Positions 13,092 to 24,494 of a stretch of DNA of 64,000 bases are shown here, piece after piece. The notes beneath the pieces were generated by a model. The model was given only the letters and a program-made list of their open reading frames with translations, was not told where the DNA came from and did not search any database. How positions within the stretch are numbered: position 1 is the first letter of the stretch; each line of letters opens with the position of its first letter. Origin of the DNA: Patescibacteria group bacterium. Lineage in GTDB: Bacteria; Patescibacteriota; Patescibacteriia; UM-FILTER-42-10. Where the stretch lies: the NCBI GenBank assembly GCA_041666485.1, contig JBAYGW010000004.1, forward strand, positions 10,341 to 74,340. The letters run 5' to 3'. A program made the translations under genes and the position numbers.

Positions 13092-15197
13092 CTATTCGGC
13101 CGGATTGTACGTGGTACTTTCCAGACGAACGACGGGGATTTCATCGTAGGCTGAGGGGACTTCGTAGCATCCCATCAGCTTCTGCATGTACACCCAGCCG
13201 GTGCACTTGTTGGCGTCGCCGGTCCAGACGATACGAATCTCCTGGATATTCTCAAGATCGGCTTCACCGAAGTCCACCAGCAGGTAGGCCGGACGCTGCG
13301 GGTACAGATCCGGGATCGTCCAGTAACGAACGGAGCCGTTAGTGTACCGGAACTCCATGATCGTGTCCTCGTGCTGGAGGACATCAAACTTGAACAGTCC
13401 CCACATCCGCTGCCAGTAGGGGTGACCGGTCGTCACGAACGCGCAGTCCGTGAGATCGCCCGGTCCCACCTTGAAGTCGTTGATGTCAACTTCCCAGCAG
13501 ATGGTCTCCGGATCCGAAGCGGACCGGACGCGGATGTTGATTTCGCGTTGCTGAACTTCGCCGGTGACGTTGTCCGTCACCTCAACGTAGAACAGGTGAT
13601 TACCCGCGTTCAGCTCAGGATACTCGCAGACCGGGGTGGTCGCGAACGGAAACTGCTCCAGGTAACCCCACTTCACCGAGTTATCGCCGGAGCCACCCTG
13701 GATGATCACCTGGAGGCTCGCGGTCACAGGTTCCACTTCGTCCTGCGGACTGCCGAAGATCTGGGTGGTCATCGGCGGGTACTGCAGTGCTTTCACGCGG
13801 ATGGCGACGTCCTCGTTCAGAACGAGACCGGTGACGTTGTCCGTCACCTGCACGTGGAACACGTGTACGCCGGCCATCAGACCCATCACTTCAACTGCCG
13901 GAGTGGTGCCGACGACGACGTTACTGTCGTTGGTCCACTCGTAGCTGAAGTCGCCCGAACCGTTATTCACGGTCACCAGCATATTGCCGTTCACCGGCTC
14001 GGTCTCGTCCTGCGGGGTAACGAAGGTTGTGATACCCATCGGGATGATGGGATCGTCCTCGCGGGGCAGAGCGGTGACGGTAACGGTTTGCTGTCTCACC
14101 TGGCCGGTTGCGTCGGTGACGGTGGCCTGGAAACAGCGGGTGCCGGGCTGGGTGATACTGAGACGCACACTGCGTGTGGTTGCGAAGACGTTGCCGTTCT
14201 CGCTCCACACGTGCACGAAGGGGTAGATCCCTCCGAACTCGTGCATGGTCAGCGTGGTCTCAAACGAAACCGGGATCCCACTCGTGGAAGCAGTCGCATC
14301 CATGTCGAGCGGAGTCGGATCGTCCGTGTCCACATACACCGTCAAGTCCTGGAAGGTGGAGCCGTTGCCGGTGCCATCGTCCAAGAAAACGGTAAAGGTA
14401 TGTGTGCCGTCGGGGAGATTCGGGTATGCGGCGAACAGACTCTGCGAGAACATAACGCCCTCGTAGAACCACCGGTAATGGTAGTTTCCGTCACCGCCGG
14501 ACCCGTGCGCTTCCAGATAGGCTTTGTCGCCGATCGCGAAGCCGAAGGCATCCAGCGTCAGAGCGTGGAGTTCCCCAGGAGCGCCGGCACAGATGGTACG
14601 GTTGAAGGTGACTTCGTTGCCGTCGGCATCGGTGATCGTGCCGACCACTGCGTAGTTTCCCGGCTGTTCGGCCCGGAACCGGATGGACGGTTCGGTGTAC
14701 ACCGCACCGTTCACGATGATGTCAAACGAGTAGGGCAGTTTCCCACCCCAGCCGATGAGCGAGATTGACGCTTCGTAAGGCGCCATCAGGTCGTTCGGTG
14801 TGACGATCATCATACCCTGAAGCGGGCTGTCGGTTTCCACTTCCTGCTCGCTGGCCGTGACGGTCAGCTCGCGGGAGATGGTGGTGTCCGGGTAGACGAC
14901 CTTGAGCTCGAAGCTCCAGGAGCCGGGTTCGGGCGCCGTGAACACAGTGTCCGTTCCGGTAGCGTAGAACTGCCCATCCTTGTAGATTGCGACGTGTTCC
15001 GGATCGCCAAGCACGGTTCCCCAGAGGGTAGCCGTATCGACGTAGGGCCGAAACAGGTTGAGCGGTGAGGCGTTGAACGTCGCGCCGAATTCCGGAAGCA
15101 CAGGTGCCTGCGGCGCCACCAGATCAGCCTCGCTCTCGCAACCAGCGAGTACGAGGCCGAAGGCGCAGATCGCAAGCAAAGCGATGATTCTCTTCAT
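13092..15197 (-). CDS. Large lipoprotein with repeated Ig-like/PKD-like beta-sandwich domains (high-GC island)
   Basis: RBS AGGAGG lies 6 nt before ATG. Lipoprotein signal MKRIIALLAICAFGLVLAGC (lipobox LAGC). Internal repeats are visible, e.g. FVTPQDETEPVNGNMLVTVNNGSGDFSYEW and FGSPQDEVEPVTASLQVIIQGGSGDNSVKW. The 465-aa antisense ORF 13371-14768 is rejected. Confidence 0.7.
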   Translation of the reverse strand: MKRIIALLAICAFGLVLAGCESEADLVAPQAPVLPEFGATFNASPLNLFRPYVDTATLWGTVLGDPEHVAIYKDGQFYATGTDTVFTAPEPGSWSFELKVVYPDTTISRELTVTASEQEVETDSPLQGMMIVTPNDLMAPYEASISLIGWGGKLPYSFDIIVNGAVYTEPSIRFRAEQPGNYAVVGTITDADGNEVTFNRTICAGAPGELHALTLDAFGFAIGDKAYLEAHGSGGDGNYHYRWFYEGVMFSQSLFAAYPNLPDGTHTFTVFLDDGTGNGSTFQDLTVYVDTDDPTPLDMDATASTSGIPVSFETTLTMHEFGGIYPFVHVWSENGNVFATTRSVRLSITQPGTRCFQATVTDATGQVRQQTVTVTALPREDDPIIPMGITTFVTPQDETEPVNGNMLVTVNNGSGDFSYEWTNDSNVVVGTTPAVEVMGLMAGVHVFHVQVTDNVTGLVLNEDVAIRVKALQYPPMTTQIFGSPQDEVEPVTASLQVIIQGGSGDNSVKWGYLEQFPFATTPVCEYPELNAGNHLFYVEVTDNVTGEVQQREINIRVRSASDPETICWEVDINDFKVGPGDLTDCAFVTTGHPYWQRMWGLFKFDVLQHEDTIMEFRYTNGSVRYWTIPDLYPQRPAYLLVDFGEADLENIQEIRIVWTGDANKCTGWVYMQKLMGCYEVPSAYDEIPVVRLESTTYNPAE

Positions 15198-15206
15198 CTT
15201 GACCTC

Positions 15207-16274
15207 CTACATACCGAAGTTGTAGTTGACGCCGGCGGCGATGGAAGGCTCGACCGAGCGATCCGTGCCGAGGCGATCGAAGAACATGAGACCGGGCGTG
15301 ATGTAGCCCAGGACGTGTCCCTTGGTGATCGCGAACCCTCCGTAAAGGCCGTAGCCGTTTTGGAGGTATTCGCCGAACGTCTCCACGCATTCGGAAGCGT
15401 AGAGGATCCGTGCCGTCAGACCGAACCACGGCTTATTCCCGTAGAAATGCGCCATGTTCAGGCTGAACAGCTTCTGCTCGACCGACTGCTCGACTGAGCC
15501 GAGATGCTCAGAGCCGAAACTGCCGTAGCCGAGAGTGCCCGAGATGAAGTTGCGTCCGCTCCGAATCCCGAAGGAAACGGATGGGACCAACGTGGGCTGG
15601 CCGCTTGATACGGTAACCCATTCCGCTCCGAACCCGAGCATGTAGCTCTTGTCGGAATTGGTCGGGTGAACCGGGTGAACACAGGGCGCCGGCCGCTCAA
15701 CGATGCGTTCGGTGACGATGCGTTCAACGACGACTCGTTCGGTCGACTTCGTCGGCAGCTTGTCCACGTAGATGTGGATGTAGCGGTCGCCGATGCGCTG
15801 GGAGCGGATGTGGAAGTAGTCAATCGGGACCTTGAACGGGTCCACACCGACGTACTCTAGCACCTGGTTGGCCGAAGCCTCCCGGGCGCCGTTCGTTCCT
15901 CCATCCCAGTCCAGATTCTGGGCATCAAAGTCAATGTCCTTGAACCTGGGGTCGTCCTTGAAGATCTCCAGGATTCCGTACTTCGTGGGGTCCGTGCAAC
16001 AGACCACCACGAGACGCTTGTTCCCGGCGCGGACGCTGTCCAGTTCGGTCCGGAACTCCGGCGTGACCAGCGGAAGAACCTCTTCCTTGGTCACCAGATG
16101 CCCGGGCTTTCCCTTCCCGAGCTGGATGAAGATGCCGCGATCCCGAGGGATCACGGTGTGGTCGGGCTGGTCCGCCTGCGCGATGCTCGATTCTGCGACC
16201 AGCATCAGCACGGCGATGAGAAACACGGTGATTTTCCTCACTACTCTCTCCTTCAGTTGTGCTGTCATATCCAT
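15207..16274 (-). CDS. Secreted protein with a C-terminal outer-membrane beta-barrel-like domain (co-transcribed with the lipoprotein)
   Basis: Signal peptide ...RKITVFLIAVLMLVAESSIAQA. The start could be ATG 16274, ATG 16268 or GTG after AAGGAG. The C-terminal ~150 aa shows an alternating hydrophobic pattern with Gly/aromatic-rich strands (GFGAEWVTVS...LGYGSFGS...YGLYGGFAIT...VNYNFGM), typical of OMP beta-barrels. The stop overlaps the RBS of the downstream lipoprotein gene. Confidence 0.55.
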   Translation of the reverse strand: MDMTAQLKERVVRKITVFLIAVLMLVAESSIAQADQPDHTVIPRDRGIFIQLGKGKPGHLVTKEEVLPLVTPEFRTELDSVRAGNKRLVVVCCTDPTKYGILEIFKDDPRFKDIDFDAQNLDWDGGTNGAREASANQVLEYVGVDPFKVPIDYFHIRSQRIGDRYIHIYVDKLPTKSTERVVVERIVTERIVERPAPCVHPVHPTNSDKSYMLGFGAEWVTVSSGQPTLVPSVSFGIRSGRNFISGTLGYGSFGSEHLGSVEQSVEQKLFSLNMAHFYGNKPWFGLTARILYASECVETFGEYLQNGYGLYGGFAITKGHVLGYITPGLMFFDRLGTDRSVEPSIAAGVNYNFGM

Positions 16275-16556
16275 TATGACAGCGGGTGAAACCTCGAACG
16301 GGAACCAAACAAAACCAAAAACCACGTGAAACGACAGATTTTCAAATAGCACCTCTCCTAAAGATGAAACATCTCAGTAGAGGGGAATAAGGACATTTAC
16401 AAACATCCTGATTCCTCCCTTCTAACATGCAAAAAGCGTGGATTTATAGGTGAAATTATCCACTAAATATTATTTGAATTTATAAAGTATTTTTTCTGAT
16501 ATTACCACCTGATAGTAAATAATTACGACTGACTACTATATGCTTATTTAATCGTT

Positions 16557-16586
16557 TTGTCAAGAGCGAGTGTTTACTGCTACAAT
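16557..16586 (+). promoter_or_regulatory. Sigma70-like promoter upstream of the ECF sigma gene
   Basis: TTGTCA (16557-16562), then an 18-nt spacer, then TACAAT (16581-16586), about 36 nt before ATG 16622. Confidence 0.45.
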
Positions 16587-16621
16587 GAAATAATACTAAT
16601 TAATAATGCGTAGTAATCACA

Positions 16622-17206
16622 ATGGCTGTCATCAGAGACTGTAGTCAAAAATCAGATGAGGAGTTGGTTGCCTTAACACTTTCTGATCAAGGGTGGTATT
16701 TGTGTTTGATGCAAAGGTATGAGGCAAAATTGACCCGGTTTATCCGGCGCATCTCAGGGGTTAATGATCAGGATTTGGAAGACATTTTACAGGATGTATT
16801 CATTAAAGTGTATCGTAACCTGAACAGTTTTGATCTGGATCTGAAATTTTCTTCCTGGATTTACCGTATATGCAGAAACCATGTCATCAGTCATTACCGC
16901 AAAGTACAAAGCCGTCCGGAACTAATCGGCGGTGATGACGGAGAATTGATTTTGAATCAAATAAAAGATGACAGTGATCCGCACGCTTTGATTGACGAAG
17001 TATTGTCTAACGAAAAAATTCAGTCGGTGCTTTCCAAAATGGATAAAAAATATCAGGAAGTAATTATTCTGAAATATTTGGAAGACAAGGATTATCAGGA
17101 AATAGCGGATATTTTAAAAAAACCGGTCGGCACGGTCGGTACGCTTTTAAGCAGAGCAAAAGAACAATTTAAAACAATTACTCAAAAACAAGGAACCGAA
17201 TTTTAA
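16622..17206 (+). CDS. ECF-type RNA polymerase sigma-70 family factor
   Basis: Region 2: DILQDVFIKVYRNLNSFDLDLKFSSWIYRICRNHVISHYRK. Region 4 HTH: YQEIADILKKPVGTVGTLLSRAKEQFK. Confidence 0.85.
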   Translation: MAVIRDCSQKSDEELVALTLSDQGWYLCLMQRYEAKLTRFIRRISGVNDQDLEDILQDVFIKVYRNLNSFDLDLKFSSWIYRICRNHVISHYRKVQSRPELIGGDDGELILNQIKDDSDPHALIDEVLSNEKIQSVLSKMDKKYQEVIILKYLEDKDYQEIADILKKPVGTVGTLLSRAKEQFKTITQKQGTEF

Positions 17207-17207
17207 T

Positions 17208-17963
17208 ATGGAAGACACATCAAAACAAGTATTGGCAAAAATTGAAAAGGAAAAAATCACCCCGAAGCCGAAATGGCAATTCAGGCTAGAGCAGATTGGT
17301 ATTTGGTTTCTGGCTATTATTTCTGTATTAATCGGCAGTAATGCCTTTTCGCTGATTATCTTCGCTATGGTGAATAATGACTGGGAAGTGCTGGAACTGC
17401 TGGATAGAAATCCTGTTAGTCACACACTGGCAACTATCCCGTACCTTTGGCTGGTTGTTTTGGCTCTGTTTGTTCTGCTGGCATATTATAATACCCGCCA
17501 TACCAACAAAGGTTACCGTTACAGTACGTACGGCATTGTAATCGGCAGTATTGCCGCAAGCATGTTGGTCGGCACAGTATTATACTCAGTTGGTTTTGCG
17601 CCGGGCGTGGATCGTCTGATCAGGGGGGTACCGGGTATAAATATGCTGATGCATGATCGCGAGGAGATTTGGAGCCATCCAGAAAATGGATTTATGGCCG
17701 GTGAAATAATTAATGTAAAAAATAACACCAGTGAGTTTGAAATAATAGATTTGAACGATGAGGAATGGATAGTGAATGCCAACAATGCAGTCATTTTCCC
17801 CTCCGTTATAATAGAAAATGGTGAATTAGTAAGAATTATCGGACAGGTGCAGGATGATAAATATATATTTGAGGCTCAGCGTATTCTGCCTTGGCAGGTT
17901 GGTCCATCGTCTGGCGGGGTTTTCGGTGGCGGCATGCATCAGGGCTTTATCCAAGTGAAATAA
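17208..17963 (+). CDS. Polytopic membrane protein, candidate anti-sigma factor (translationally coupled to the ECF sigma gene)
   Basis: Starts 1 nt after the sigma stop (taatATG). Cytoplasmic N-terminus of ~25 aa, then at least 4 TM helices and a C-terminal extracytoplasmic domain. The call is positional. Confidence 0.45.
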   Translation: MEDTSKQVLAKIEKEKITPKPKWQFRLEQIGIWFLAIISVLIGSNAFSLIIFAMVNNDWEVLELLDRNPVSHTLATIPYLWLVVLALFVLLAYYNTRHTNKGYRYSTYGIVIGSIAASMLVGTVLYSVGFAPGVDRLIRGVPGINMLMHDREEIWSHPENGFMAGEIINVKNNTSEFEIIDLNDEEWIVNANNAVIFPSVIIENGELVRIIGQVQDDKYIFEAQRILPWQVGPSSGGVFGGGMHQGFIQVK

Positions 17964-18034
17964 ATTATTATACTGATACGTAGTAACAGTTGAAAGGTCG
18001 AACATTACAAATTAAAGAAAGGGACAAGTTAGGC

Positions 18035-18535
18035 ATGAAAAAAATGCTTTTAACAGCCATTGTATCTGCAGTTGCGTTAGCGACTGTAGGCATTGGTTTT
18101 ACAATGGCTCAAGGTGTCGCAATATCGGATACGCAAGTTGCGACATCTGAGGCAGTGAGTGCCGCAGATACTCCATCCGACGTTACAACTGATTGTGGCA
18201 TGGGAAGACATCTTGGTTCTGGTCCAGGCTTTGAGAAAATGCTCGACCAGAAAGCTGAGATTCTGAACCTGACTACGGATGAACTCCAAGCGAAGCTAGA
18301 TGAAGGCAAGACCTTTATTGAAATAGCTGAAGAGCAAGGAGTCACTTATACTGACATTCAAAACTATATGAATGCACAGTTTGAGGAAAATCTGCAGGCA
18401 CGCGTTGACTCAGGTTTTCTGACACAGGAACAGGCAGATCAATTCCGCACACAACACAATGAAAACAGCGGGACGATGCTGGGTCTGGGACTGGGTGATG
18501 GTATGGGGATGCATAGAGGCGGTATGCATTTCTAA
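18035..18535 (+). CDS. Secreted hypothetical protein (third gene of the sigma operon)
   Basis: MKKMLLTAIVSAVALATVGIGFTMAQG signal peptide. Gly/Met-rich C-terminus. ATG 18035 preferred over the upstream ATG 17990. Confidence 0.5.
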   Translation: MKKMLLTAIVSAVALATVGIGFTMAQGVAISDTQVATSEAVSAADTPSDVTTDCGMGRHLGSGPGFEKMLDQKAEILNLTTDELQAKLDEGKTFIEIAEEQGVTYTDIQNYMNAQFEENLQARVDSGFLTQEQADQFRTQHNENSGTMLGLGLGDGMGMHRGGMHF

Positions 18536-18564
18536 AGATTGAAATTAATTGATCGTCAAAACGC

Positions 18565-18598
18565 AAAAAGGCCGGTTGACCTACGCCGGTCTTTTTGT
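18565..18598. terminator. Bidirectional intrinsic terminator
   Basis: AAAAAGGCCGG-ttgacctacg-CCGGTCTTTTT forms an 11-bp stem flanked by an A-run and a T-run. Confidence 0.55.
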
Positions 18599-18693
18599 AT
18601 TATGGAGTATTAAATTTTCTGTTTACTGCCACTTTATTTTTTTTGGCTTTTGTGTTAAAATAGCACAAGCAAAATAGACTAATAATAAGTGAT

Positions 18694-19611
18694 ATGCCGC
18701 GAACAACGATCGAGCACAATGGTTTGGAGTGGACAAATATCATTCAGCCCACGGAAGAAGATACAAACCATTTAAAGACCAAATATGGTTTCCATTATTT
18801 TGATTTACGTGACTGTCTTTCCGTAACTGAATCACCAAAACTGGATATTTATGAGAAATATCTGTTTATTGTTTTTCACTTTCCGGACTATAATCGGAAA
18901 GAAAAAAGAATGATTTATCGGAGGTTAAATGTATTCATTGGAGACGGATTCTTAGTAACTTTGTATAAAGGCGAGTTTGATGCGGTGGAAGGGATGATGA
19001 ATTATGTGCAAGAAAATAACGATCCGCGTGACCAGTTTATGGGTAAAGGTTCTGGCTACTTGCTATACAATTTAATCAACCCGATTTTCAAAAAAGCATT
19101 TCCGATGGTAGATAAAATCGGAGAAAATTTGAGGGGAATTGAGGAGGATATTTACAGCGATAAGACAATTGATGTAGTAAAGGAATTGGCAATGGAACGC
19201 CGGAATATCCTTAATTTCCGGAGAATAATTGAACCGCAGAGGTTCTTGATTGACACCATGGTGCACCTTAAAAGGGGATTTTTAGGTACGGATTCTGATA
19301 TATATTTTGATGATATTCATGATCATATAGAGCGGATTTGGATGTTGCTAGAAAATTACCGGGAAATTGTAAGGGGGCTTAGCGACACCAACGATGCGCT
19401 TATTTCCCACAAGATGAATGAAACAATGAAAATGCTGACTTTGATTTCAGTGTGTTTGTTGCCATTGACTCTAATCGCAAGTATTTATGGTATGAATGTC
19501 ACAAGTCTGCCGTACGCAGAGAGCCCCGTGGCGATATGGGGATTTTTTGTAATAATGGTTTCATTAATTGCCGGAACGGTTATTTACTTCAGGAAAAGAG
19601 GCTTAATTTAA
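18694..19611 (+). CDS. corA: CorA-family Mg2+/Co2+ transporter
   Basis: Two C-terminal TM helices with the YGMN signature (ASIYGMNVTSLPY). A 305-aa length is typical. Confidence 0.85.
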   Translation: MPRTTIEHNGLEWTNIIQPTEEDTNHLKTKYGFHYFDLRDCLSVTESPKLDIYEKYLFIVFHFPDYNRKEKRMIYRRLNVFIGDGFLVTLYKGEFDAVEGMMNYVQENNDPRDQFMGKGSGYLLYNLINPIFKKAFPMVDKIGENLRGIEEDIYSDKTIDVVKELAMERRNILNFRRIIEPQRFLIDTMVHLKRGFLGTDSDIYFDDIHDHIERIWMLLENYREIVRGLSDTNDALISHKMNETMKMLTLISVCLLPLTLIASIYGMNVTSLPYAESPVAIWGFFVIMVSLIAGTVIYFRKRGLI

Positions 19612-19628
19612 ATTTAAATTTATCTATC

Positions 19629-20096
19629 GTGCTTAAGTCTTTGAAACAGTTTGGTTATCCGTTTGCCGTGTTTTTTTTGGTGGTCGGTTTACTGATGGGC
19701 TATCAGGAATTAATCACAGATCCGGTCACAAAGGAAAATATCACGGTGCTTTCCGCGACTGTGTCAGTAGATGATGAGCCTGTTGTTTTAGTTTCACCGG
19801 CAGAGCTGATAAACACTTATCAGGAAGATATCGCATTAATGGTATCAGAATTGGAATCAATTTTGGATCAGCAAAAGACATATTTGGTTGATTCGGAGCG
19901 TATAAAAGAAATCACAGAAATTGAACAAAAATTAATGAATACAAAAGTTCCTGAAATATATCGGGATTTGCATTTAAAAATATTCGGTATTATGCATTCA
20001 GTCAAACAGTTTGCTACACAAGAATCTGATCAACAGAATATTTCAGATATTCAGTCTAAAATTTTAACTATAAAAAATCAGTATGCTTGGTTTTAG
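19629..20096 (+). CDS. Hypothetical N-terminally membrane-anchored protein (start uncertain)
   Basis: The ORF-track start at 19452 overlaps corA. In-frame GTG 19629 (or ATG 19693) lies just after the corA stop and gives a TM helix AVFFLVVGLLMGY. Confidence 0.35.
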   Translation: MLKSLKQFGYPFAVFFLVVGLLMGYQELITDPVTKENITVLSATVSVDDEPVVLVSPAELINTYQEDIALMVSELESILDQQKTYLVDSERIKEITEIEQKLMNTKVPEIYRDLHLKIFGIMHSVKQFATQESDQQNISDIQSKILTIKNQYAWF

Positions 20097-20112
20097 CAAA
20101 AACACTGTCCGA

Positions 20113-21168
20113 ATGAAATATCTTTATATTATTTTCATTTTACTAGTGATTACCCTGGTGGGCGGGGGAGTATTAGTTTTGATTAACGGACAAGATAGAG
20201 CGCAGGTGCTTTCCTCGCAAGCAAACAATGTGAATAATATCCGGCCTTCAAAAAATGCAGTTACTTATATATCGGATCGTGACGGCAACGCGGAAATATA
20301 TCTTCAAAATACCGATGATCAAAAAACTCAGCGGGTGACAGAGACAAAAGTGACTGAGTATAGTCCCATCCTGTCTTCAGATGGAAGAAAACTGGCATTT
20401 TTTTCTGAAGAAGAAGGTTTCTACGGAATCTGGACATATTCTTTGGAAAATTATGAAAAAAAATTATTATCAATTACAAAAGCTGTTCCCAAAAGATTAT
20501 TATTTTCTCCGGACGGACTACTGCTGGCGTATTTTGAGCGGGATAATAGCCAAAATAATTTATATATTATTAATACGGTTAGCGGTCGTAAGGAGCGGGT
20601 CACTACATCGGCATATGATTTTTCCTGGTCGGATGACAGCTCGTCAATTGTTTATACGGAAAATTCTTTACCGAGCATCTTAAAGACTGAAATAATCATT
20701 CGGACAATCGCAGAAGATGGAAAATTGGAAGATCCGAATACCATGTTTGTCGGCGGGGTCGCGCCGGTGTTTGTGTCGGGAAGTGAGAGGCTGTATTTTA
20801 TTGATACGGGTGGTGAATATATCAGCCTGGCATCCACCAGTTTGCGCGGAGAAGGATATGCGGAAGAGTTTCAGATTAAAATTCAGCCCAAAGATGGAAT
20901 GCTGTACCGGCTGGCAAAAAACCCGGTGCGGAACGAATTACTGTTGTCAATATTTTCGGAAGAAAAACTTGTCGGGACTCTTTTCATTTCGCTGGATGAT
21001 AAAGTTGCGCTTCCGATAAATAACAAAGTCTTGGCAATTAACTGGGACAACAACGGAAAAATTATGTTTGTGGAGAAAGACGAGGCTGATAATAATCAGG
21101 TCTGGTTAAAAAATGATTATGACACTCAACCGGTTAAGTTAACAGACAAATATAATAATTGGTTTTAA
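20113..21168 (+). CDS. TolB-like beta-propeller protein with N-terminal TM anchor
   Basis: Anchor MKYLYIIFILLVITLVGGGVLVLI. YISDRDGNAEIY matches the TolB/PD40 hallmark (DRDGN.EIY). Further PD40-like repeats follow (SPDGLLLAY, SWSDDSSSIVY). An alternative ATG at 20083 overlaps the upstream gene. Confidence 0.6.
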   Translation: MKYLYIIFILLVITLVGGGVLVLINGQDRAQVLSSQANNVNNIRPSKNAVTYISDRDGNAEIYLQNTDDQKTQRVTETKVTEYSPILSSDGRKLAFFSEEEGFYGIWTYSLENYEKKLLSITKAVPKRLLFSPDGLLLAYFERDNSQNNLYIINTVSGRKERVTTSAYDFSWSDDSSSIVYTENSLPSILKTEIIIRTIAEDGKLEDPNTMFVGGVAPVFVSGSERLYFIDTGGEYISLASTSLRGEGYAEEFQIKIQPKDGMLYRLAKNPVRNELLLSIFSEEKLVGTLFISLDDKVALPINNKVLAINWDNNGKIMFVEKDEADNNQVWLKNDYDTQPVKLTDKYNNWF

Positions 21169-21172
21169 CGGA

Positions 21173-21937
21173 ATGATAATCCTACGAAGAATCAGCTCCA
21201 TTTTCTCTGTATTATCCGTTTTAGTTTTGTTTGAAATTTTGGTTTATAATCCGAACTGGTTTTTATACATCATATTAATTTTGGAAGCGATAGTAGTAAT
21301 TTCAATAATCGGTTTAGCCTGGAAAAAAATAGAATTGAAGGAAATCTGGCAGTTTTTAATACCGCCGGTATTTTTAGTTGCCTCAGCTTATGTCTTTATT
21401 TTTTTTGTTGAAGGAGTACTTTCAACGCAGCTATTTATTTTTTTTGTAGTATTCCTGTATGGTGTCTTTATTGAGAATACTTTTTTATATTTGTATCAGC
21501 CGGTCAAATACCAGCCTTACGCTTTAGAAAATATTTCAGCGTACGTTAACCTGGTGGCAGTATTTTTTATGGGGGCTTCTTTTCACAGCAATATGGTATT
21601 TTTTGGAACATCCGGTGCGATATCGTCAGTCTTCGTATTCATCTTTACGTTTGTTTTAGTAATTCAGATGATTTGGATAAATAAGATTGTGCTGAAGGGT
21701 AATTACGCCGTAGCCGGTATGCTGGCTCTGCTTGTCACGGAAATATTCTGGGCAACAGTATTCCTGCCGTCCAGTTATTTGGTAAACGGGTTGATAATCG
21801 CGCTCAGCTATTATTTCCTGGTCGGTGTATTCCGTTACTGGTTGCTTAAGAGTCTTGATCGTAAGGTGTTTAAACGATATATTATAATTACCGTTTCGGT
21901 TTTTATCGTTGTCGCCTTGTCCGCACGTTGGACTTAG
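21173..21937 (+). CDS. Polytopic integral membrane protein, hypothetical
   Basis: 254 aa with about 7 hydrophobic helices and no motif. Confidence 0.5.
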   Translation: MIILRRISSIFSVLSVLVLFEILVYNPNWFLYIILILEAIVVISIIGLAWKKIELKEIWQFLIPPVFLVASAYVFIFFVEGVLSTQLFIFFVVFLYGVFIENTFLYLYQPVKYQPYALENISAYVNLVAVFFMGASFHSNMVFFGTSGAISSVFVFIFTFVLVIQMIWINKIVLKGNYAVAGMLALLVTEIFWATVFLPSSYLVNGLIIALSYYFLVGVFRYWLLKSLDRKVFKRYIIITVSVFIVVALSARWT

Positions 21938-21965
21938 ATTTATAAAAATAATCATTAATAAATAT

Positions 21966-23249
21966 ATGAAAACAAAACCAGTACCAACATCACCAAAAGT
22001 CAGAAATAAAAAGGATATTGTAGAAGATATCTATAATTCAGGCGGCCAGAAGTCATTTGACAAACCGCGGATAAAACAGCGCAACGGAGTATTGATTCTG
22101 GTGCTGGCGATTTTGTCCGGTTTTTTTGCGGGTATTTTCGGAGAAACCATTGTGAATGCCTTGGCGGTAGCATATCCTAACTTGCCGGTAATCAGCTCGT
22201 TATACGTCAGGACATATCCGAACGAAGGTAATGTCCTGATTGTAAAAAATGAAAAAACAATTGAAGCTCAGGAACTGCAGGTGCTCAATACATTGAGCCA
22301 AATACAGCCCGCGGTAGTTACAGTATTTGAAAAGAAAAGTGTAAATCCGGGTGGCGCGGATTTATTGGATGATAATTACCAATTCGGTAATGCGTTGGGC
22401 AACGCGTTAATTTTAACTAATGACGGATTGTTAGTGACGACCAATCAAATAGTAACTGATGCGGAGAAAGAATATGTGGCAGTGACGTCTGACCGGAAAA
22501 TATATTTAGCTGAAAAAGTAATACGGGATTCCGCGACAAATCTGGTGTTTTTCAGAATAAGTGCCACGAACTTATCTATAGTAGAATTCATTAATCCCCA
22601 GGATTTGCATATTGGTCAGCAGGTATTGGCTCTGTCCAATAAAGTAAACGGTAATTATGAAAGTGAGGCATCCACAATCAGAGACCTGCTTTATTATCCG
22701 GATAACGAACTTATTGATATTATTTATTCATCGGAAAAACTTAATGATCAGATAAAAATAACAGATTCTCTGCCGGAGGTTTTTCTGGGCGGTCCGCTAG
22801 TTACCAATGACGGAAAGGTGGTCGGGATTGCAACGGCTGATAGAAATAATGTAATAAATCAAATTTTGCCGGGCGAATATATTCAAAAAATAATCCCAGG
22901 CATTCTGACAGATGGTACACCAGGCAGAGTATATTTTGGCACAAATTATATTGATTTAAGCCGCACAACCCAGTTGGATGTCAGTACTGTTGGTGAAAAC
23001 AAAGTCGGAGCGCTGTTATATGGAAATGATTCATTATCAATCACAGCTGTTGAGAGCGGCAGTCCCGCGGAAAAGGCCGGGTTAATGAAAGACGATATTA
23101 TTACAGCGGTTGACGGTAGGGAAATATCAAATAACGACAGCTTGTCGGAAATTATACAAAATTATAAAGCAGGTGATAAAGTTGATATTCAATACATCCG
23201 CTCGGGCGAGAAATTAACATTACCGGATGTGACGCTGACTGAAGAATAA
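21966..23249 (+). CDS. HtrA/DegP-like trypsin-fold protein with C-terminal PDZ domain. The catalytic triad is substituted, so it is a predicted pseudoprotease
   Basis: N-terminal TM anchor. The protease-domain landmarks align, but the catalytic residues are replaced: His box GLLVTTNQIV (H->Q), Asp box TNLVFFRI (D->N), Ser box EVFLGGPLVTNDGKVVGIATA (GNSGGP -> VFLGGP, S->L). The PDZ is intact (SPAEKAGLMKDDIITAVDGREI). Confidence 0.7.
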   Translation: MKTKPVPTSPKVRNKKDIVEDIYNSGGQKSFDKPRIKQRNGVLILVLAILSGFFAGIFGETIVNALAVAYPNLPVISSLYVRTYPNEGNVLIVKNEKTIEAQELQVLNTLSQIQPAVVTVFEKKSVNPGGADLLDDNYQFGNALGNALILTNDGLLVTTNQIVTDAEKEYVAVTSDRKIYLAEKVIRDSATNLVFFRISATNLSIVEFINPQDLHIGQQVLALSNKVNGNYESEASTIRDLLYYPDNELIDIIYSSEKLNDQIKITDSLPEVFLGGPLVTNDGKVVGIATADRNNVINQILPGEYIQKIIPGILTDGTPGRVYFGTNYIDLSRTTQLDVSTVGENKVGALLYGNDSLSITAVESGSPAEKAGLMKDDIITAVDGREISNNDSLSEIIQNYKAGDKVDIQYIRSGEKLTLPDVTLTEE

Positions 23250-23251
23250 AT

Positions 23252-23716
23252 ATGAAGAAAATATTTCACGCAATAAAAAATCACGAACAGATCAAAAGCC
23301 GCCCGTACATTGCGCAATTTGTTAAATTTGCGATTATCGGTACCGCCAACACCTTTGTTGACTTTGGTATATATTTTGGTTTGACCCGTTCCTCACAATT
23401 CTGGGAAACGCATTACTTGTGGGCAAATTTTATCGCTTTTGTTGTTGCTGCTTCTTCAAGTTATATATTTAACAAAAACTGGACCTTTAAAGACAAAAAT
23501 AGAAAAATACGGATTCAATATTCAAAATTCATACTGGTAAGCGCGATCGGACTTTCACTAAATGAGACGATTCTTTACTTTTTAGTCACGCATGCTGGGC
23601 TGCACGACTTAATATCAAAAGCAATGGCAATTAGCGTGGTGTTGTTCTGGAATTTTACGATTAACAAAATATGGACTTTCAGACCCGAAACAACAAACCA
23701 AGATGCAGAGTTGTAA
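23252..23716 (+). CDS. gtrA: GtrA-family membrane protein (lipid-linked sugar translocation)
   Basis: 154 aa with 4 TM helices. FVKFAIIGTANTFVDFGIYF...NKNWTF...NKIWTF are GtrA hallmarks. Confidence 0.75.
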   Translation: MKKIFHAIKNHEQIKSRPYIAQFVKFAIIGTANTFVDFGIYFGLTRSSQFWETHYLWANFIAFVVAASSSYIFNKNWTFKDKNRKIRIQYSKFILVSAIGLSLNETILYFLVTHAGLHDLISKAMAISVVLFWNFTINKIWTFRPETTNQDAEL

Positions 23717-23753: not shown

Positions 23754-24494
23754 ATGAATAAAGCACCCATATTTGAAGCACTTTCCCTTGTAATCCCGGT
23801 ATATAACGAGGAAAAAAGGATTGCGAAATCACTGGCAATTATCATTAAATATCTTGATCAGGTATGTCAGGAATACGAGATTATCATTGTTGATGACGGA
23901 AGTCAGGATCGGACTTTAGATGTGATAAATGAACTGAGTACGGATCGTTTTCGGATAATCAGATTGGAACGGAACAGGGGAAAAGGATACGCGGTAAAAC
24001 AGGGAATGTTAGCAGCCAAAAATGAACATATTCTTTTTTCTGATGCAGATCTTTCAACGCCGATTGAAGAACTGGAAAAATTTGTAGAATACACGAAAGA
24101 TTATGATGTGATTATCGGTTCGCGGGCAATGCAGGGTTCAAATATTGAAATTCATCAGCCGAAGTTCAAGGAGTTTCTAGGCAGGGTGGGAAACAAGTTT
24201 GTTCAGCTGGTATTGCTTCCCGGAATTCAGGATACGCAGTGCGGATTTAAACTTTTCAACAAAAGAACTATCGCAGTATTTGAGAATCAAACTATTGACC
24301 GATGGGGGTTTGATTTTGAAGTTTTGTGGCTAGCCAAGCAAATGGGTTTTAAAATCAAAGAGGTGCCGGTGCATTGGATTAATGATTTTGCAACGAAAGT
24401 TTCCGGATTTTCAAATTACGTCAGTACCTTCATGGAACTCATGAAGATAAGATGGAACGCCATGACTAATAAATATAATATTCAAAAAAAATGA
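23754..24494 (+). CDS. GT2 glycosyltransferase, polyprenyl/dolichyl-phosphate sugar synthase-like (GtrB/DPM1-like, soluble form)
   Basis: LSLVIPVYNEEKRI...EIIIVDDGSQDRT...GKGYAV...SDADLS (DxD). Confidence 0.8.
   Translation: MNKAPIFEALSLVIPVYNEEKRIAKSLAIIIKYLDQVCQEYEIIIVDDGSQDRTLDVINELSTDRFRIIRLERNRGKGYAVKQGMLAAKNEHILFSDADLSTPIEELEKFVEYTKDYDVIIGSRAMQGSNIEIHQPKFKEFLGRVGNKFVQLVLLPGIQDTQCGFKLFNKRTIAVFENQTIDRWGFDFEVLWLAKQMGFKIKEVPVHWINDFATKVSGFSNYVSTFMELMKIRWNAMTNKYNIQKK

Follow-up and report, generated by a model that had tools for sequence, protein, structure and literature searches.

A predicted HtrA pseudoprotease of Patescibacteria is encoded next to the nine-helix membrane protein DUF5656, beside a separate ECF sigma unit

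We analyzed a 64,000-nucleotide stretch of DNA from a Patescibacteria group bacterium (GenBank assembly GCA_041666485.1, contig JBAYGW010000004.1, positions 10,341 to 74,340 of the forward strand), hereafter called the window and numbered from its first letter. It encodes an N-terminally anchored protein of 427 amino acids that combines an HtrA-type protease domain (Trypsin_2, PF13365) with a PDZ domain (PDZ_2, PF13180) and is predicted to be catalytically dead (21966–23249). The gene lies on the plus strand in a long string that starts with a CorA Mg/Co transporter (18694–19611; PF01544, E = 3e-63) and continues with a small 156-residue protein (19626–20096), a PD40/TolB-like β-propeller protein carrying an N-terminal anchor (20083–21168; PF07676, E = 2e-12) and the nine-helix membrane protein DUF5656 (21173–21937; PF18900, E = 2e-6). 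A GtrA-family membrane protein (23252–23716; PF04138, E = 6e-30) starts 2 nt 3′ of the dead HtrA and is followed by a GT2 glycosyltransferase resembling polyprenol-phosphate sugar transferases (23754–24494; PF00535, E = 1e-31), which opens a run of sugar-nucleotide and glycan genes and whose position is collinear in relatives. Gaps between corA and the genes after it are at most 14 nt, or the genes overlap. The 156-residue protein and the PD40 protein are kept in the close clade only, and the latter is a partial TolB-propeller match far under the family cut-off. Upstream of corA, on the same strand, lie an extracytoplasmic function (ECF) sigma factor of 194 residues (16622–17206), a polytopic membrane protein of 251 residues (17208–17963) and a secreted protein of 166 residues (18035–18535), closed by an intrinsic terminator-like hairpin (18563–18598). 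All open reading frames named in an initial annotation of this DNA are present, and their domain content matches its description.

The initial annotation had read all three catalytic positions of the HtrA-like protein as substituted (His to Gln, Asp to Asn, Ser to Leu), and three independent alignment methods agree. Gln-161, Asn-192 and Leu-274 fill the His, Asp and Ser columns when the protein is aligned by phmmer to solved DegP/DegQ chains, when it is aligned by MAFFT with active HtrAs of the candidate phyla radiation (CPR) that carry TNxHV, DxA and GNSGGP motifs, and when the dead family is compared with 14 active HtrAs by hhalign (probability 100%, E = 6e-68). No histidine is conserved anywhere across eight full-length orthologues, which rules out an alternative nearby triad at the family level. 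Orthologues share the same three residues in part: the His column holds an invariant Gln in nine orthologues and the Ser column a Leu in seven of eight (Arg in the remaining one), whereas the Asp column drifts between Asn, Gly, Asp and Glu.

An AlphaFold2 (AF2) model of the protein (mean predicted local distance difference test score 88.5, above 95 in both domains) matches HtrA, AlgW, MucD, DegP and DegS with a Foldseek probability of 1.0. The protein has the two-barrel trypsin-like fold and at least one PDZ domain, as expected of the HtrA/S1C family, and lacks the His-Asp-Ser triad with its GNSGG nucleophile motif that marks the active peptidases. It scores well below the corresponding NCBIfam cut-offs (97 versus 416 bits for TIGR02037, 86 versus 423 for DegS and 89 versus 470 for HtrA). 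Its predicted layout comprises a short cytoplasmic tail (MKTKPVPTSPKVR...), one transmembrane (TM) helix, an extracytoplasmic HtrA-fold domain and the PDZ domain. With high confidence, the sequence identifies it as a catalytically dead pseudoprotease.

The gene is under purifying selection and is not decaying, a conclusion we hold with high confidence. Relative to the closest relatives (87–88% identity, dS ∼0.8), the ratio of nonsynonymous to synonymous substitution rates (dN/dS) is 0.085 for the whole protein, 0.093 for the dead protease domain, 0.099 for the PDZ domain and 0.01–0.02 for the TM helix with its juxtamembrane segment, and the reading frames are intact and full-length in all relatives.

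An exhaustive profile search returned 441 representatives of 50%-identity clusters at E < 1e-30, many of them aligned end-to-end. Among the 148 best representatives, 146 lack the H/D/S combination and two keep it. Nearly any residue occurs at the three triad columns of these 146, and this near-randomness indicates that catalysis was lost long ago and that the columns have since drifted neutrally. A tiny family of nine members, separated by a gap from ordinary HtrAs at ∼30% identity, had emerged from a word-indexed search and proved to be a sensitivity artefact in the light of the profile search. A scan of genome contigs with patterns specific to the close clade gave two species genomes. One distant partner sequence is named Candidatus Kerfeldbacteria, and the remaining named members are assigned to 'Patescibacteria group'. 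Two further HtrA-like CPR proteins with a degenerate triad, P0011 (no His, Asp to Asn, Ser to Ile) and P0051 (no His, Ser retained), are probably members of this broad family as well.

Comparison of 145 dead representatives revealed that the trypsin-fold scaffold (Asp-153–Gly-154, Asp-188, Gly-287 and Pro-302) and the peptide-binding elements of the PDZ domain have been retained, as the initial annotation had noted for the window protein. The PDZ residues (Arg-321, Leu/Phe-324–Gly-325, Tyr-328, Gly-348-Ala-Leu, Ser-366-Pro-Ala and Asp-377-x-Ile) are 80–100% conserved, Arg-412 is conserved as well, and the binding-element consensus is identical to that of active HtrAs. A cytoplasmic MKxKxxPTSPK motif opens 61 of the 145 sequences. 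In the form MKxKPxPTSPK (21966–22004, residues 1–13) this N-terminus is conserved among members that are just 25–40% identical overall and may serve for docking or phosphorylation. The dead triad, the kept scaffold, the intact-looking PDZ domain and purifying selection together make a non-catalytic role (sensor, chaperone or scaffold) the right category for this protein.

Inspection of gene neighborhoods identified an invariant partner. Of the loci that extend upstream, 29 of 29 (24–88% identity) have a DUF5656 homologue directly 5′ of the dead HtrA gene, and we regard this pairing with high confidence as established. The DUF5656 stop codon and the dead-HtrA ATG are about 4–73 nt apart or overlap, with one exception (about 210 nt in locus L019). 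The neighborhood sample comprised 17 metagenome loci (24–88% identity) and three loci of members without the N-terminal motif, for which the pairing holds too; the broad family alignment was too diverse for pattern-based retrieval of loci, and the motif-sharing subset was used instead. The window protein matches the DUF5656 profile at 27.8 bits (gathering cut-off 23.3) over positions 12–239 of 242, and the partner protein in locus L030 is likewise annotated as PF18900.

An AF2 monomer model of DUF5656, built on a shallower multiple sequence alignment from which the locus-derived rows were left out, has nine helices (predicted template modeling score 0.81), and a search of solved structures with this model returned no significant relative (best E = 1.3). 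Loops rich in Lys and Arg follow TM helices 2, 4, 6 and 8, so that the N terminus is predicted to lie inside and the C terminus outside. Across DUF5656 sequences that are 18–27% identical, conservation is found at Glu-80, in a predicted cytoplasmic YQPxKYQPYALEN loop and at the extreme C terminus, which reads [ST]A-x-W-Φ in 28 of 29 loci. On the other side of the pair, the close clade has GtrA directly 3′ of the dead HtrA, and in L019 and L021–L023 GtrA follows at a distance of ∼2 kb; MurJ-like and LepA genes are among the neighbors in distant lineages. In Kerfeldbacteria-like lineages a further gene separates the dead HtrA from GtrA (L019, 8320–10356; L021, 11251–13389; L022, 6317–8455; L023, 11275–13410), and the stop and start codons of successive genes overlap or abut. 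It encodes a secreted protein of ∼680–710 residues that may be a lineage-specific component or client.

The reading we favor, which we consider an even call, is that the dead HtrA would bind peptides, without catalysis, as a subunit of an envelope membrane complex with DUF5656. The dead HtrA and the nine-TM DUF5656 protein would assemble in the membrane, and the preserved PDZ groove would dock a C terminus. HtrA PDZ domains bind C termini and the groove is intact here, and for this reason we propose the conserved TA-x-W-Φ tail of DUF5656 itself, which is predicted to face outward, as the best candidate ligand. On the inner face, the conserved cytoplasmic tail of the dead HtrA may touch the YQPxKYQPYALEN loop. 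Such a complex would most likely act in envelope or secreted-protein biogenesis, or in surface-glycan biogenesis, a role we propose because of the GtrA, GT2, MurJ and sugar-nucleotide neighbors. We have moderate confidence that the two proteins physically associate and low confidence that the PDZ domain docks on the DUF5656 tail.

Several points weigh against this reading. The AF2 models are of monomers, and both the complex and the binding of the DUF5656 tail by the PDZ domain are proposals. The DUF5656 topology is deduced from hydropathy and the positive-inside rule. Just three to four residues of DUF5656 extend past its last helix, a short stretch if it is to be bound by a PDZ domain, and the conserved Trp at the end of that helix could simply be a membrane-interface residue. 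The DUF5656-like protein of L029 is without the C-terminal motif. Because the N-terminal motif of the dead HtrA served as the seed of the metagenome scan, the sampling is biased, with three motif-less members checked. Finally, one unrelated lineage (L028, 5892–7485) has an ECF sigma factor and a DUF5667 gene at a distance of 0.9 kb on the downstream side of the DUF5656/dead-HtrA pair, which leaves some room for a loose sigma association.

A more far-reaching version of the complex strikes us as doubtful. DUF5656 and the dead HtrA-PDZ protein might form an unrecognized two-protein envelope machine that is widespread in Patescibacteria, in which a protease scaffold has been turned for good into the ligand-binding ectodomain of a nine-helix protein of novel fold, held in place by PDZ capture of the partner's C terminus and signaling across the membrane via the MKxKPxPTSPK tail. 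If true, the machine could be, for example, a transporter or sensor gated by peptides, or it could be the only HtrA-type holdase that the organism has.

HtrA scaffolds are able to work without catalysis: the DegP S210A variant binds unfolded clients through its scaffold and PDZ domains. By analogy, the generic activity to be expected most plausibly from a dead HtrA would be protease-independent chaperoning of the DegP kind. DegP itself is soluble, has two PDZ domains, assembles into cages and keeps its triad in nature, whereas the dead HtrA is predicted to be anchored in the membrane, contains a single PDZ domain and is paired with DUF5656.

As a precedent, MamO of magnetotactic bacteria comes closest; it is a triad-degenerate HtrA that has been retained for non-catalytic roles (PMC4794232). 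Searches of the literature on DUF5656 and on the dead HtrA family in Patescibacteria/CPR returned no description, and MamO was the sole relevant pseudoenzyme precedent. MamO and the inactive MamE duplicates resemble the dead HtrA in their HtrA/trypsin-2 fold, in a degenerate triad that is under selection, in their membrane association and in acting with a partner (PMC4794232). MamO, however, carries a fused TauE transporter domain and a di-His metal site and activates the adjacent protease MamE, and none of these three features is found here: the dead HtrA has a PDZ domain, no conserved His, a separate nine-TM partner in DUF5656 and no protease neighbor, and it belongs to a different and far larger lineage, in Patescibacteria.

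A role closer to that of MamO is nonetheless conceivable, in which the dead HtrA would be a regulatory paralogue of an active HtrA from another place in the genome and would either join it in mixed oligomers or activate it allosterically. MamO promotes MamE-dependent proteolysis (PMC4794232), Patescibacteria commonly encode active HtrAs with a GNSGGP motif, and the dead HtrA keeps the scaffold residues of the family. We consider this role unlikely, however, since neither the window nor any of the 30 loci examined contains an active HtrA, since the invariant genomic partner is DUF5656 and not a protease, and since the size and age of the dead family and the free drift of its triad columns do not fit a recent duplicate.

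The initial annotation had instead connected the dead HtrA to the ECF sigma genes upstream. The sigma factor itself is readily confirmed. It contains Sigma70_r2 (E = 5e-15) and Sigma70_r4_2 (E = 1e-14) and thus only regions 2 and 4, as in ECF (group 4) sigma factors, and it passes the sigma70-ECF superfamily model TIGR02937 (98.9 bits, cut-off 42.9). Its best equivalog-level likeness is to SigW, at 104 bits, far under the 209-bit cut-off. The gene for the 251-residue membrane protein starts 1 nt past the sigma stop codon (TAAtATG) and follows the sigma gene in eight of eight loci. That this protein is an anti-sigma factor agrees with its location and with its cytoplasmic N terminus, in which PKPKWQFRLEQ is invariant and forms the most conserved part of the protein, the outer domain being variable. 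No anti-sigma domain was detected, however: there is no family match even at E = 10, and the ∼30 residues ahead of TM1, which contain no Cys, fall short of the ∼50–90 residues, often with an HxxxCxxC motif, of anti-sigma domains (ASD) or their zinc-binding variants (ZAS). We infer from co-location and the conserved N terminus that it is a putative, non-canonical anti-sigma factor.

Footprinting of the eight orthologous regions upstream of the sigma gene revealed a housekeeping-type promoter and, overlapping it, a two-block motif with variable spacer, TGAAA[TG]-N17-(G)CGTA[GT]TA. In the window the promoter was located by consensus scan (TTGTCA-N18-TGnTACAAT, 16557–16586, plus strand; kept in seven of eight loci in the footprint alignment). 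The SigW-like ECF-type motif, TGAAAT-N17-GCGTAGTA (16586–16615, plus strand), lies 36 nt 5′ of the sigma ATG and is present in eight of eight loci. The same motif precedes the secreted-protein gene in seven of seven loci, 71–80 nt before the ATG; its copy in the window, TGAAATAAAT-N13-ACGTAGTA (17956–17985, plus strand), stands 79 nt upstream. A matrix built from 19 sites, the weakest of which scores 17.8, gives the two window sites scores of 30.2 and 34.2, the latter being the window's highest, and the next best score in the 64 kb is 9.0. A further occurrence at 16842, inside the sigma coding region, was set aside because coding constraint explains its conservation. The motif upstream of the sigma gene is a candidate autoregulatory promoter, and the secreted protein is a predicted direct target of the sigma factor. 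The ECF-type motif overlaps the −10 element of the housekeeping-type promoter, and its CGTA block ends ∼10 nt before the sigma ATG, so that a transcript starting from there would be leaderless or nearly so.

The secreted protein consists of a signal peptide, a helical core and a Gly/Met/His-rich tail. The tail, GxGMGxGxGM[HR]xGGMH[FL]-COOH (about 18470–18532), is found in seven of seven orthologues, and one Cys after the signal peptide is conserved. The Met and His residues suggest binding of a metal such as copper, and the aromatic C terminus would suit a PDZ ligand. Pfam scans at relaxed cut-off of the 251-, 166- and 156-residue proteins gave only noise, the secreted protein reaching DUF2680 at E = 0.1 only. 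In several relatives an ABC-ATPase and an FtsX/MacB-type permease are inserted between the membrane- and secreted-protein genes (L001, 3470–6056; L003, 2491–5065; L005, 3644–6044; corresponding to the junction between 17963 and 18035 in the window). The pair has its own ECF-type motif in four of four cases and is absent from the window, L006 and L007/L008.

The hairpin that closes the unit has its core at 18570–18591 and a U-tract at 18592–18596. Its predicted free energy of −20.7 kcal/mol (z = −4.9) was equalled in 0 of 200 shuffled sequences, in line with the strong terminator of the initial annotation; a simple terminator scanner caught it on the minus strand only. The sigma factor, its non-canonical membrane partner, the Met/His-tailed secreted protein and, in relatives, the MacB-type ABC/FtsX pair make up a separate, self-contained unit, predicted to be driven throughout by the SigW-like motif. 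SigW of Bacillus subtilis recognizes the consensus TGAAAC-N16-CGTATA. The unit resembles SigW-type systems in its motif (TGAAAT-N17-CGTA) and in its predicted targets, small envelope proteins and an ABC/FtsX pair, and differs in that its partner, unlike RsiW, is without a zinc-binding anti-sigma domain, with ∼30 cytoplasmic residues and no Cys.

According to the initial annotation, the PDZ pseudoprotease would be a non-catalytic sensor or decoy of this adjacent circuit, sensing envelope proteins through its PDZ domain and modulating the anti-sigma factor. The non-catalytic role stands, and the link to the sigma operon, as far as the genomic evidence goes, does not; we regard the proposal as a whole as quite improbable. 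Both are encoded on the same strand, with ∼3.4 kb between them, and every orthologous contig down to 41% identity preserves their order. In the window's own clade, however, the whole region from the sigma gene to the sugar-nucleotide genes is collinear, and the adjacency is therefore uninformative on function. As divergence grows, the sigma factor, the 251-residue protein, the secreted protein, CorA and the PD40 protein drop out of the dead-HtrA neighborhood, the secreted and 251-residue proteins being limited to the close clade. A profile search located an ECF sigma factor near the dead HtrA in one of eight outside lineages (L028), the other seven being without one in the DNA examined, compared with 29 of 29 loci for an adjacent DUF5656.

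The predicted transcription signals argue in the same direction. The terminator and a 158-nt spacer, together with separate promoters, divide the sigma unit from the corA-to-gtrA string, and the best motif scores 5′ of corA, PD40, DUF5656, the pseudoprotease and gtrA range from −13 to −25, whereas real sites score at least 17.8. In L015 the ECF motif has a match 5′ of the dead HtrA, which was rejected since the sister loci L016 and L017 lack it. Moreover, the dead HtrA belongs to a large, old dead family and did not arise as a single offshoot of a stress protease.

The sole hint of a recurrent sigma association comes from two loci, L028 with its sigma factor and DUF5667 gene, and L029 (4030–4695), where a DUF5667 protein is encoded 0.6 kb 5′ of the DUF5656-like gene. 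DUF5667 may be a CPR anti-sigma-like partner, and the dead HtrA could possibly act in trans on the candidate anti-sigma factor. Aromatic C termini activate DegS, and the GGMH[FL]-COOH end of the secreted protein, which the sigma factor is predicted to control, resembles them. DegS and AlgW share with the dead HtrA an N-terminal anchor, one protease and one PDZ domain, the structural match and the carboxylate-binding elements of the PDZ domain. They are, however, active site-1 proteases that cleave RseA or MucA, whereas the dead HtrA is without a triad, and anti-sigma cleavage by it is impossible because the catalytic residues are absent. The genetic or regulatory linkage to a sigma/anti-sigma pair that characterizes DegS/AlgW pathways is also missing, the sigma system beside the dead HtrA showing neither promoter nor phylogenetic linkage to it. 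To our knowledge, Patescibacteria are not thought to have an outer membrane whose porins could signal to DegS.

That the dead HtrA still hydrolyzes peptide bonds via unconventional residues (Ser-255 and Ser-256 are 74–79% conserved in the dead family, and some orthologues keep an Asp in the Asp column), or that its gene is a decaying pseudogene, is barely credible, since no set of His, Lys, Ser or Cys residues is invariant in the protease domain and no His is conserved at all, since the 'SSE' stretch also occurs in active CPR HtrAs at a non-catalytic position, and since intact full-length reading frames in all relatives and a dN/dS of ∼0.09 exclude decay.

Next to the sigma unit, two adjoining minus-strand genes (13092–16352) have a G+C content of 59%, compared with ∼39% for the genome. 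They encode a lipoprotein-like protein of 701 residues with PKD/Ig-like repeats and a protein of 381 residues without a family match. The same gene pair is GC-rich in relatives (56–59% versus 35–40%; L001, 1–1683; L005, 1–1578; L006, 1447–4282), which identifies it as a conserved compositional island and not an assembly chimera; it is perhaps an old horizontal acquisition.

Pseudoproteases themselves are known; what had gone unreported is how large the dead family is, that its members are wrongly annotated as active proteases, and that they are obligately paired with DUF5656. A protein identical to the dead HtrA is labeled 'S1C family serine protease' at NCBI, and this label is functionally wrong for at least 146 sequence clusters, with the consequence that the proteolytic and quality-control capacity inferred for Patescibacteria genomes is inflated. 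For an uncultured lineage, the sigma unit provides an ECF promoter motif that can be tested, together with a mini-regulon, and the locus illustrates that adjacency inside one collinear clade is no evidence of a functional link. The pairing with the dead HtrA provides the first functional handle on DUF5656. That organisms with very small genomes maintain a dead enzyme under strong selection, always paired with an uncharacterized nine-TM protein that matches no known fold, points to a conserved envelope function that has not been described.

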